Shown: piece after piece, positions 61,421-62,598 of the stretch
How the letters are laid out: each line of letters opens with the position of its first letter
Position numbering within the stretch: position 1 is the stretch's first letter
Origin: Candidatus Stahliibacteriota bacterium
Lineage (GTDB): Bacteria; Hydrothermota; Tepidihabitantia; SM23-42
Assembly: GCA_030609135.1 (NCBI GenBank)
Contig: JAUWCU010000003.1
Location: forward strand, 55-64,054
Direction: 5' to 3'
Length of the DNA stretch: 64,000 nucleotides
Program-made: the position numbers and the translations under genes
Notes under the pieces: model-generated
Told to the model about the DNA's origin: nothing
The model's input: the letters and a program-made list of their open reading frames with translations, nothing else
Databases searched by the model: none

Positions 61421-61500
61421 ATAATATCTGTAGTGTTAGAATACGATATGGGATTAATATCTTTGAGGAGGATTTTTGGGCGATCAAGGATACGTTAAAC
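61421..61500. repeat. about 85-bp direct repeat, copy 1 (copy 2 at 62511-62598); the pair brackets the hepT-mntA cassette
   Basis: ataatatctgtaRtRtt...atgggattaatatcttt(g/c)a(g/a)gaggatttttgggcgatcaa(g/t)gatacgtta is about 88% identical between copies. Each copy lies upstream of a minus-strand promoter (wzz and mntA respectively). Confidence 0.65.
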
Positions 61501-61618
61501 CGTCTCTTGCAAGATACCAATGCATAAACAACTTTTCGTTGATCAAAAAAACCGTTTTCGGTATTGTAAATATGTATGTACTTGCGGATTTCATGGGATG
61601 AATAAAGGCGGAATATTA

Positions 61619-62038
61619 TTAGGTAGATTCTAAGTAATTTACAATTGCTTGGGCAAAGCTATTGAAATCAGCTAATTGATTCTGTAGGATATCATAAACC
61701 TGATTGGGATCAGTATAAAGATAATTATGCACTAAAATGTTTCTAAAACTAACCATACCTTTAATTTTCTTAATCAATTCTTCTGGCAACACGCCATTTT
61801 TGCCTAAAACAACAAAGATATTTTCCTGTTCATCTGGCACTAATAGATTTTGTCCAGCAATAATGTAATTAGCAATGTCAATACAGGTTTGCATAGCTAC
61901 CTGAAAATTTCTTTCAGCAATATCCTGGTAATCTTGATTATTGGTATATTCATCCTTTGATATTCGTTGAATTCTTTTCAGCCTTGATACGGCATGATCG
62001 AGTTTTTTTAATCGCACCTCAATAACCTTTTTATCCAA
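61619..62038 (-). CDS. hepT: HepT-like ribonuclease toxin (DUF86, RX4HXY motif)
   Basis: 139 aa; FRNILVHNY matches the Rx4HxY catalytic motif. Overlaps mntA by 8 bp. Confidence 0.8.
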   Translation of the reverse strand: MDKKVIEVRLKKLDHAVSRLKRIQRISKDEYTNNQDYQDIAERNFQVAMQTCIDIANYIIAGQNLLVPDEQENIFVVLGKNGVLPEELIKKIKGMVSFRNILVHNYLYTDPNQVYDILQNQLADFNSFAQAIVNYLEST

Positions 62039-62453
62039 TGCCTACCTCTTTGATTTTTTTCTTTAAATACCTTGAATGAAACTCAAAATATTTCTTATAA
62101 TCGTAATACAATCCCATTGAATATGCTTGGAATAGCGCCCTTTTGTTTTCATCTTTCTCATAAATTAATTGTCCCTTTTCAAAAACCTGGGCCCTTAAAA
62201 GTAGATTTGCAAAGTTCAAAATTACAAGGTCAACTTTTCCTTTTAATAGCTCCATTAAATCTGTACTAAGATTCATTCGATAGAACAGTGGATTCTCTAT
62301 TTTCTTTTCATTAATCAATAGCGCGATATCAATGTCACTATCTTTTCTTTGTTTCTTTTCAACTACTGAACCAAATAAATAAGCCGAATAAATTTCAGGT
62401 TTTGTAGTAAAATATTTCCGGAGTTTTTCAGTTATTTCCAGTTGGAATTTCAT
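62031..62453 (-). CDS. mntA: MntA-like minimal nucleotidyltransferase antitoxin
   Basis: GSVVEKKQRKDSDIDIAL matches the GSx(n)DxD nucleotidyltransferase motif. The promoter TTGACT-16-TACAAT lies 6 nt upstream (leaderless). Confidence 0.8.
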   Translation of the reverse strand: MKFQLEITEKLRKYFTTKPEIYSAYLFGSVVEKKQRKDSDIDIALLINEKKIENPLFYRMNLSTDLMELLKGKVDLVILNFANLLLRAQVFEKGQLIYEKDENKRALFQAYSMGLYYDYKKYFEFHSRYLKKKIKEVGIG

Positions 62454-62510
62454 AAAGAAATTGTATTCAATTTAATAGTGAAGTCAAGGTAGAACCCACA
62501 TTCTATTTAG

Positions 62511-62598
62511 ATTTTTTTTGATAATATCTGTAATATTTGAATAAAAGATGGGATTAATATCTTTCAAGGAGGATTTTTGGGCGATCAATGATACGTTA
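62511..62598. repeat. about 85-bp direct repeat, copy 2 (see 61421-61500)
   Basis: See copy 1. Confidence 0.65.

Follow-up and report, generated by a model that had tools for sequence, protein, structure and literature searches.

Remnants of a Roadblock gene start flank a HepT/MntA toxin-antitoxin module at a cassette hotspot of a WOR-3-like bacterium

Results

Organization of the locus

The locus described here lies at the right end of a 64,000-nucleotide (nt) stretch of contig JAUWCU010000003.1 from a Candidatus Stahliibacteriota bacterium; this whole stretch is hereafter called the window. The locus comprises a mntA-hepT toxin-antitoxin (TA) operon placed between two direct repeats, both of them decayed starts of rb, a gene encoding a Roadblock/MglB-like protein. 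A preliminary description of the window had recognized the repeats and the operon and had taken them for a recent insertion that could excise. We compared the window with contigs or loci of relatives or of the same population, numbered L001 to L037. The features of the locus are listed below (lengths of gene products in amino acids, aa).

60111-61346, minus strand: wzz, a Wzz/GNVR chain-length-determinant-like gene, 411 aa (Pfam GNVR, E 1.4e-8; Wzz, E 3e-4)
61355-61382, minus strand: predicted sigma-70-like promoter of wzz, TTGACT-16-TATACT (consensus scan)
61405-61545, plus strand: copy 1, decayed rb promoter and codons 1-35 (tblastn, blastn, junction common to L031 and L015)
61412-61497, plus strand: repeat 1, the part of copy 1 shared with copy 2 (internal alignment)
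61546-61618, no strand: tail that separates the rb fragment from the hepT stop and forms the distal arm of the TA cassette (alignment of relatives)
61619-62038, minus strand: hepT, HEPN RNase toxin, 139 aa (PF01934, E 7e-31)
62031-62453, minus strand: mntA, MNT nucleotidyltransferase antitoxin, 140 aa (PF18765, E 1.8e-24)
62460-62487, minus strand: sigma-70-like promoter of mntA, TTGACT-16-TACAAT (consensus scan)
62499-62598, plus strand: copy 2, rb promoter remnant and codons 1-19 (tblastn, alignment with L020)
62599-62660, plus strand: left arm of the AbiE cassette, 62 nt, 95-98% identical in L015, L031 and L030
62661-62818, plus strand: palindromic structured element resembling a miniature inverted-repeat transposable element, outside the repeat pair (minimum free energy of the fold -65.6 kcal/mol, z = -8.4)
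62828-62855, plus strand: abiEi promoter, TTGACA-16-TATAAT, 12/12 consensus (consensus scan)
62877-63458, plus strand: abiEi antitoxin, 193 aa (PADLOC AbiEi, E 8e-33)
63455-64000, plus strand: abiEii nucleotidyltransferase toxin, running off the window end (PF08843, E 1.9e-24)

Pfam and NCBIfam both confirm the mntA-hepT operon, which runs on the minus strand from 62453 to 61619 as first described. HepT scores 129.7 bits against HepT_toxin (NF047751; cutoff 60), and its Rx4H motif reads RNILVH in the translation, in agreement with the Rx4-6H RNase motif. MntA scores 97.1 bits against MntA_antitoxin (NF047752; cutoff 60) and exhibits the GSx10DxD motif as GSVVEKKQRKDSDID. As in known type VII HepT/MntA systems, mntA comes first and lies immediately upstream of hepT, the two frames overlap (by 8 nt, 62031-62038), both motifs are present and both NCBIfam equivalogs are passed. 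In such systems, the antitoxin AMPylates the toxin (PMC7641770). Judged from its sequence, the window pair appears to be a genuine and ordinary type VII module, of which only the genomic setting is of note.

This setting is the junction between a polysaccharide locus and a TA or defence island, as had been proposed: wzz lies on the left and AbiEi/AbiEii on the right. The wzz gene is the last gene of the polysaccharide locus and is called as a 411-aa gene on the identical Joint Genome Institute (JGI) contig L004.

Two copies of the repeat in the window

Repeat finding and MAFFT alignment within the window placed the direct repeats at 61412-61497 and 62512-62598, with a length of about 86 bp and an identity of about 88%. 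A blastn search of the window against itself gave 61409-61497 and 62510-62598, with 87.8% identity over 90 columns, nine mismatches and two gaps. The repeats of about 85 bp and about 88% identity reported to bracket mntA-hepT are thus real, with a left edge of copy 1 that had been drawn about 9 nt too short. Homology of copy 1 to its source gene extends from 61405 to about 61545, well past the part common to copy 2. The longest stretches over which the two copies agree perfectly measure 22 and 17 nt, and the block 61466-61497/62567-62598, with 31/32 identical positions, stands above the rest of the repeat.

The 22-mer AGGAGGATTTTTGGGCGATCAA has exactly two occurrences in the 64-kb window, even with three mismatches allowed, and none is expected (100 shuffles). 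No third copy of the repeat is present in the 64-kb window; as the window holds two copies only, a dispersed repeat is ruled out. In a scan for exact matches to the 22-mer in one genome per species, the sole match was in a metagenome-assembled genome of candidate division WOR-3, where it covers codons 9-16 of a 164-aa Roadblock/LC7 gene with an MglA-like GTPase next to it. Exact 22-mer and 20-mer scans elsewhere returned one chance match, on a high-GC contig, and no match was found in viral contigs.

Folding of both copies as single-stranded DNA, on both strands, gave energies of -2.8 to -6.1 kcal/mol (z from -0.8 to +0.6) and no hairpin, and an attC or integron site is ruled out on this ground. 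No known RNA family was found by Rfam at its E-value threshold between 58000 and 64000.

Both copies derive from the start of rb

On the plus strand, copy 1 encodes IRYGINIFEEDFWAIKDTLNRLLQDTNA* between 61441 and 61524, which corresponds to residues 1-28 (1-28/30) of Roadblock proteins from WOR-3 (tblastn, E 2e-9 to 1e-12). Copy 2 encodes the first 19 residues of rb between 62541 and 62598, with a 1-nt insertion at 62565; here, tblastn recovers residues 4-19 and 1-12 of Roadblock, with E-values of 1e-4 to 6e-3. The repeat translation matches the conserved Roadblock N-terminus, M[RQ][ED]GINIFEEDFWAI[NT]D.LNRLLQGTNAR, as seen in 120 homologue N-termini compared. Intact rb genes have a TTGACT-16-TATAAT promoter, with which the approximately 36 nt ahead of the start-codon equivalent can be aligned in each copy, and copy 1 is 87-88% identical over 119 nt to the intact rb starts of L015, L031 and L025 (blastn). 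The block with 31/32 identical positions is also the most conserved rb stretch across all genomes compared. Beyond codon ~30, the similarity of copy 1 to distant intact rb genes is not significant, and only the orthologous fragments of L015 and L031 allowed its extent to be set at codon 35. The tail between 61546 and 61618 shows no significant similarity to rb.

Several lesions are observed in both copies. In copy 1, the -35 element is TTGACT (61407-61412) and the -10 element TGTAGT (61429-61434), the start codon is changed from ATG to ATA at 61441, and a TAA stop at 61525-61527 (codon 29) is followed by a 2-nt deletion. In copy 2, the -35 element has degenerated to TTTAGA, the -10 element is TGTAAT (62529-62534), the ATG is again changed to ATA (62541), and the extra C at 62565 causes a +1 frameshift. 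The changes from TATAAT to TGTA(G/A)T and from ATG to ATA are common to both copies. No intact rb or mglA was found anywhere in the window by tblastn. Both copies are pseudogenized 5' ends of rb, each comprising a sigma-70 promoter and the first codons on the plus strand, and both appear to be dead.

These assignments modify the preliminary description, in which the copies were the promoter-upstream regions of wzz and mntA and the insertion had duplicated the wzz upstream region. Both copies do lie upstream of these promoters, from which they are oriented divergently, and a duplication associated with an insertion is still the appropriate description; nevertheless, the duplicated sequence is the rb start, i.e. 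the rb promoter and its 5' codons.

A function of the repeat itself was also considered, in which the ~86-bp sequence would be kept twice for the divergent wzz and mntA promoters, as a UP-like A-tract, an operator or part of a bidirectional promoter. The two copies are equally spaced, by 25-30 nt, from the -35 elements of wzz and mntA, upstream of which they lie; in relatives, a divergent sigma-70 promoter is present in the rb upstream region, which is thereby a bidirectional unit; and the -10 and start-codon changes are present in both copies. Nevertheless, we regard such a regulatory role as improbable, since copy 2 can be dispensed with (it is lost from L015 and L031, whose mntA promoter and genes are intact), since stops, frameshifts and promoter mutations are typical of decay, and since only two copies are found in 64 kb. 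The mntA promoter sequence is kept in L015, L020 and L031. The similarity between the wzz and mntA promoters is itself marginal, as 65 of 2000 shuffles score as well.

The conserved rb operon and its variable upstream side

The Roadblock protein is a highly conserved protein of 164 aa with a nearly invariant N-terminus and 944 homologues, many of which are named WOR-3. Intact rb homologues carry PF03259 and adjoin a 193-aa Arf/Ras-like GTPase; the NCBIfam MglB equivalog gives 96.7 bits on an intact rb homologue, against a cutoff of 200. In every relative fetched, the operon order is rb, MglA-like GTPase, 96/97-aa open reading frame (ORF) and dnaE, with rb first. The dnaE gene is a single gene of ~1120 aa, except in L015 (3165-6496; JGI Ga0451423_045428), where it is called as two ORFs of 608 and 490 aa, owing either to a frameshift or to an error of assembly.

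The DNA upstream of rb differs from lineage to lineage, and the rb operon lies directly beside the variable polysaccharide locus. In L007-L010, the polysaccharide locus, with a 411/419-aa Wzz gene, ends at rb, and one intact rb without any fragment is present. L011-L014 have a GAF gene and a peptidase gene upstream of rb, and no fragment is present here either. L007-L014 are empty sites.

Within the ~95 nt that precede rb, the opposite strand bears a consensus sigma-70 promoter in divergent orientation, CTTGACTCC-N16-TATAAT. It was seen in L031 (2995-3060 and 5905-5965), in L025 (5905-6000) and in the window (61355-61382), where the wzz promoter has the position equivalent to that of the divergent promoter in relatives. 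The gene on the left of the rb start, whether wzz, mntA or mntA148 (a 148-aa type of mntA, see below), occupies this divergent promoter position. Based on these motifs, the rb start region appears to be a compact bidirectional promoter. It is also a possibility that fragment promoters which are still active, as the TATAAT of L031 may be, fire antisense into hepT-mntA and tune the TA pair.

Relatives were found through the closest MntA homologues (93% and 86% identical) and through members of the Roadblock cluster. Their architectures, with rb reading from left to right, are given below.

L020 and L021: glycosyltransferases, rb fragment (41-43 codons), ~0.5 kb, UPF0175, hepT-mntA (minus strand), 92 nt, intact rb
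L022 and L024: hepT-mntA (minus strand), 92 nt, intact rb; the contig stops before the distal side
L031: histidine kinase, response regulator, rb fragment (36 codons), hepT-mntA (minus strand), AbiEi-AbiEii (plus strand), intact rb
L015, L016, L032 and L034: layout of L031, with a glycosyltransferase as left flank
L025-L028: DUF5122-like gene, rb fragment (60 codons), a different HepT/MntA pair, 97 nt, intact rb
L030: layout of L031 without the distal fragment and the TA pair
L033: AbiE, ~1.6 kb of small ORFs, intact rb
L035-L037: AbiE, intact rb; the contig begins just upstream of abiEi

On the near side of this TA pair, relatives exhibit an intact rb, either directly or after AbiE. On the far side, a decayed rb 5' fragment is present in every contig reaching past hepT of an rb-adjacent HepT/MntA pair. 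The end points of the fragments differ: codon 19 for copy 2, codons 35-36 for copy 1, L031 and L015, codons 41-43 for L020 and codon 60 for L025. The pair of L025-L028, with its 148-aa MntA, shows no nucleotide similarity to the window pair and ~32% protein identity; this unrelated pair entered the same place and left the same kind of scar. Altogether, the cargo at this site comprises two HepT/MntA types, AbiE, UPF0175 and unnamed small ORFs. The space before rb is a hotspot in which TA cassettes accumulate, and as an insertion hotspot it is real but fairly ordinary.

The TA operon of the window or of L031 is 89-90% identical to that of L020, whereas the core operons of L031 and L020 are 76.5% identical; the cassette has therefore moved between lineages.

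The small ORFs of L033 (169, 53, 38 and 86 aa, at 1600-3140 between AbiE and the intact rb) have no Pfam matches. A number of public assemblies are interrupted within the first ~20 codons of rb or just ahead of them (the end of contig L001; the start of L005, which corresponds to window position 61452), and the partial Roadblock proteins P0137, P0138 and P0142 begin at codons 19-23, where their contigs end. These breaks suggest that the clade commonly has duplicated rb starts, which fragment assemblies.

Age of the arrangement and excision

The comparison with relatives does not bear out a recent insertion, as the TA pair bracketed by rb 5' copies is also found in L031, L015 and L020, of which L031 and L020 share a core of 76.5% identity. 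The arrangement is not recent and is present in several lineages, which is the outcome that the preliminary description itself had named as contradicting its proposal. Excision through the repeats fares no better. No excision product was found, and the deletions of natural variants have end points outside the repeat pair.

Two kinds of natural variants are known, one without copy 2 alone (L015 and L031) and one without copy 1 and the TA pair (L030). Compared with L031 (3042-4142), L030 (4085-4215) has lost the distal rb fragment and the whole of hepT-mntA, about 1.1 kb, and has kept AbiE and rb. This deletion has one end in the rb upstream region and the other in the mntA promoter, in a lineage that has no copy 2. 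Given minimal homology lengths, RecA-dependent recombination between copy 1 and copy 2, with 22 nt of perfect identity or less, should be rare.

A recent, self-contained cassette able to pop out through its flanking repeats is thus very unlikely. The 1.1-kb unit does lie between direct repeats and a TA-less relative, L030, does exist; nevertheless, the same TA-plus-scar arrangement recurs in several lineages, the copies are 12% diverged with no more than 22 nt of perfect identity, the L030 deletion ends in the upstream region and in the mntA promoter and not in a repeat pair, and the other assemblies of the same population all have the full arrangement. These are three independent assemblies (L002 and L004-L006), which are 100% identical to the window.

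Junctions and order of events

In copy 1, the junction ATTGATCAAAAAAACCG follows rb codon 35 and is common to the distal fragments of L031 and L015, in the context ...ATTGATCAAAAAAACCGTTTTCGG... in all three. The 73-nt tail which leads to the hepT stop is 93-96% identical between the window and L015 and L031. Because junction and tail are shared, copy 1 and the distal fragments of L031 and L015 represent one insertion event.

Copy 2 has a different history. It is contiguous with the mntA-proximal intergenic sequence ...GAAGTCAAGG..CACATTCT..., and in L020 the same intergenic sequence runs straight into an intact rb, which indicates that copy 2 is the rb start that formerly adjoined mntA. Its upstream sequence is of the L020 type, linked to mntA, and that of copy 1 is of another type. 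Copy 2 stops at codon 19, at GATACGTTA|TGATTCAATTGG, where the 62-nt AbiE arm begins; in L015 and L030, this arm leads directly into the AbiE promoter. In L015 and L031, copy 2 was lost by a deletion of ~100 nt, of which only 'CGTAA' is left.

These junctions bear on two further explanations. In the first, replication slippage or unequal crossing-over would have duplicated the rb start in situ, and the TA genes would subsequently have settled between the copies as an independent event. The distal fragments do find their closest counterpart in the intact rb of the same genome (94% in L020). Nevertheless, they end exactly where the cassette DNA starts and the junction is inherited with the cassette, copy 2 has the mntA-linked upstream type found in L020 and not that of copy 1, and no tandem duplication of the rb 5' end without a cassette was found in any locus examined. 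We consider this explanation very unlikely.

In the second, the cassettes would be what is left of integrative elements with an integrase that targets the 5' end of rb and supplies a new promoter and N-terminus, the repeats being of the attL/attR type. Partial copies of a gene end do flank the inserted DNA as direct repeats, and the block 61466-61497/62567-62598 could be read as a crossover core. SXT, which integrates at the 5' end of prfC, offers an analogy. However, no recombinase gene is called in the complete intervals from the distal fragment to rb in L020, L025 and L031, the end points vary (codons 19, 35, 41-43 and 60) with no constant crossover position, the near-identical block is merely the part of rb that is most conserved in all genomes, and the cassettes are just 1-1.7 kb in size. 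Site-specific integration is therefore unlikely. The same intervals were inspected for intI and attI, and no recombinase family was present among their called genes.

Right of the window, the order of features was read on L002, a contig that matches the window at 100% identity over their overlap. Past the window end, it comprises, in order, the end of abiEii at ~64213, a remnant of a 148-aa-type mntA, a piece of rb upstream sequence and a match to the L033 cassette, and it stays syntenic with L015 and L033 toward the intact rb. Based on this synteny, an intact rb is predicted ~2 kb beyond the window end; among the members of the Roadblock cluster, the intact rb of the window strain itself was not identified. 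The match to L033 consists of the final 30 nt of L002 and the beginning of the small-ORF stretch, and the window strain probably carries this further L033-type cassette.

The mntA148 remnant lies at 1423-1515 of L002 (~64213-64305 in window coordinates), on the minus strand directly after the abiEii stop. It is also present at 8428-8553 in L015 and at 5785-5910 in L031. Residues ~54-84 are recognizable (LIGDITSILKTDEVDL, E 6e-5), and the type is intact in L025-L028. The remnant indicates that an older HepT/MntA cassette was largely overwritten when AbiE arrived.

Homology-anchored insertion before rb

From the identity of the repeats, the conserved operon, the hotspot and the junctions, some shared and some differing, we infer a recombination pathway, an order of events and the presence of an intact rb in this strain. 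The locus probably arose by successive homology-anchored insertions of TA cassettes before rb, which can be called 5' displacement. An incoming cassette would be accompanied, on the same DNA, by the rb promoter and 5' region, and would integrate by homologous recombination anchored in rb. The route could be a single crossover of circular DNA carrying the cassette and an rb start, or homology-facilitated illegitimate recombination. In either case, the resident rb start would be pushed outward as a truncated scar, and an intact rb would stay beside its operon. In the window, the mntA-hepT cassette would have arrived first, leaving copy 1 (codons 1-35) as its scar. The later arrival of DNA carrying AbiEi/AbiEii would have left copy 2 (codons 1-19), cut off at 62598.

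The arrangement in relatives is that of a displacement array. In L015, L020, L025 and L031, the intact anchor gene lies inside and partial copies are found on the displaced cassettes. In the window itself, two partial copies are seen and the intact gene is predicted. Homology-facilitated illegitimate recombination with displacement was proposed for the effector-immunity arrays of the T6SS (type VI secretion system) and of Rhs (PMC5361080).

Several points weigh against homology-anchored insertion. The intact rb of this strain is a prediction only, as the window ends inside abiEii, and neither a donor/recipient pair nor a circular intermediate was observed. The distal fragments are closer to the intact rb of their own genome than to each other: that of L020 is 94% identical to its own intact rb, and copy 1 is 87% identical to the intact rb of L015 and 68% to the L015 distal fragment. 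In addition, copy 1 (61405-61545) differs from L031 (3055-3198) at 16.8% of columns and the adjacent tail and TA genes differ at 4.7%, so the scar has changed ~3.5 times faster (Fisher p = 1e-6). Gene conversion among rb 5' copies, which we suspect, would explain both the likeness to the own genome and the fast divergence of the scar, at the price of an extra process. Finally, the four illegitimate junctions all fall within the first 60 codons of rb, for which ascertainment may account, as other events would leave no scar to be seen.

A bolder version of homology-anchored insertion was also considered, in which the rb promoter and 5' segment are a portable homology arm that renders TA and defence cassettes mobile without a dedicated recombinase. 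Two rb 5' copies would recombine to yield a circle of the cassette and one repeat, which, once transferred, would re-integrate in another lineage through one RecA-dependent crossover at the conserved start of rb. We hold this version to be rather unlikely. If it were true, the locus would be an integron-like stacking array built from host recombination alone.

AbiE and small structured elements

The abiEi and abiEii genes overlap by 4 nt (63455-63458) and correspond to a type IV AbiE system. The full-length abiEii, on L002, encodes 252 aa and ends at ~64213 (PADLOC AbiEii, E 1e-35). AbiEi matches NCBIfam TAA_AbiEi with an E-value of 1.5e-17, under the cutoff.

The structured element at 62661-62818 has a second copy at 21192-21322, which is without the inner 30-nt GC hairpin. 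Both copies lie directly upstream of a TTGACA-N16/17-TATAAT promoter (62828-62855 and ~21326-21352), and one outer-stem pair differs between them in a compensatory manner (C-G and T-A). The element has no Rfam match. It is missing at the orthologous site in L015 and L030 and present in L033; in L031, it is replaced by a different 230-nt insertion with the same ATGTT target. Short-read contigs break inside the element, so there are probably more copies in the genome.

Another insertion of ~170 nt, with duplicated CAATCT flanks, is found between abiEii and rb in L015 (8258-8427) and in L016 and L017. Its hairpin motifs are similar in style to those of the structured element in the window. The L030 version has extra nested hairpins, and the insertion is absent from the window strain (L002).

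Discussion

The setting of this TA module combines two known themes, a cargo hotspot beside conserved genes and the partial duplication of the end of a flanking gene. The closest working likeness appears to be with Rhs/T6SS displacement arrays. As in these arrays, a conserved anchor gene is present, new cassettes lie beside the anchor with older ones pushed away, displaced cassettes keep a partial copy of the anchor, which gives direct repeats, and cassettes are shared horizontally. In contrast, what is displaced here is the 5' end and promoter of a housekeeping-type gene, whereas it is the 3' tip of a toxin gene in Rhs/T6SS arrays. Moreover, the cargo consists here of TA systems (HepT/MntA and AbiE) instead of effector-immunity pairs, the scars are non-functional, and the mechanism is one that we infer.

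The likeness to islands borne by integrases is more limited. Such islands duplicate target-gene ends, namely tRNA 3' ends or, for SXT/R391, the 5' end of prfC. Partial copies of the target gene flank the insert in these islands as well, and the target stays intact through a supplied replacement end. In contrast, no recombinase was found here, the junction varies (codons 19, 35, ~42 and 60) and the cassettes measure 1-1.7 kb. With integron cassettes bearing attC, the locus shares small, promoter-bearing TA cassettes that are stacked with similar repeats of ~100 bp between them; the repeats here are nevertheless gene fragments without an attC-like hairpin, and no intI or attI was seen. By these comparisons, the locus would be neither an integron array nor an integrase island. 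As for other defence and TA island hotspots, the site is fixed beside conserved genes and its cargo varies by strain, but the rb hotspot is marked by repeated scars of the start of the flanking gene and belongs to an uncultured WOR-3-like clade.

These results correct the annotation of the repeat, which is a pseudogene scar of the start of a conserved gene and neither a wzz regulatory element nor an att site. In practical terms the gain is modest: breaks of assemblies at this locus are explained by the scars, and strains could be told apart by it. For the biology of this uncultured WOR-3-like clade, a cassette-stacking hotspot is identified between the polysaccharide locus and rb-mglA-dnaE, at which the scars give a readable order of acquisition. 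They constitute a natural data set on how small TA modules without a recombinase move between genomes.

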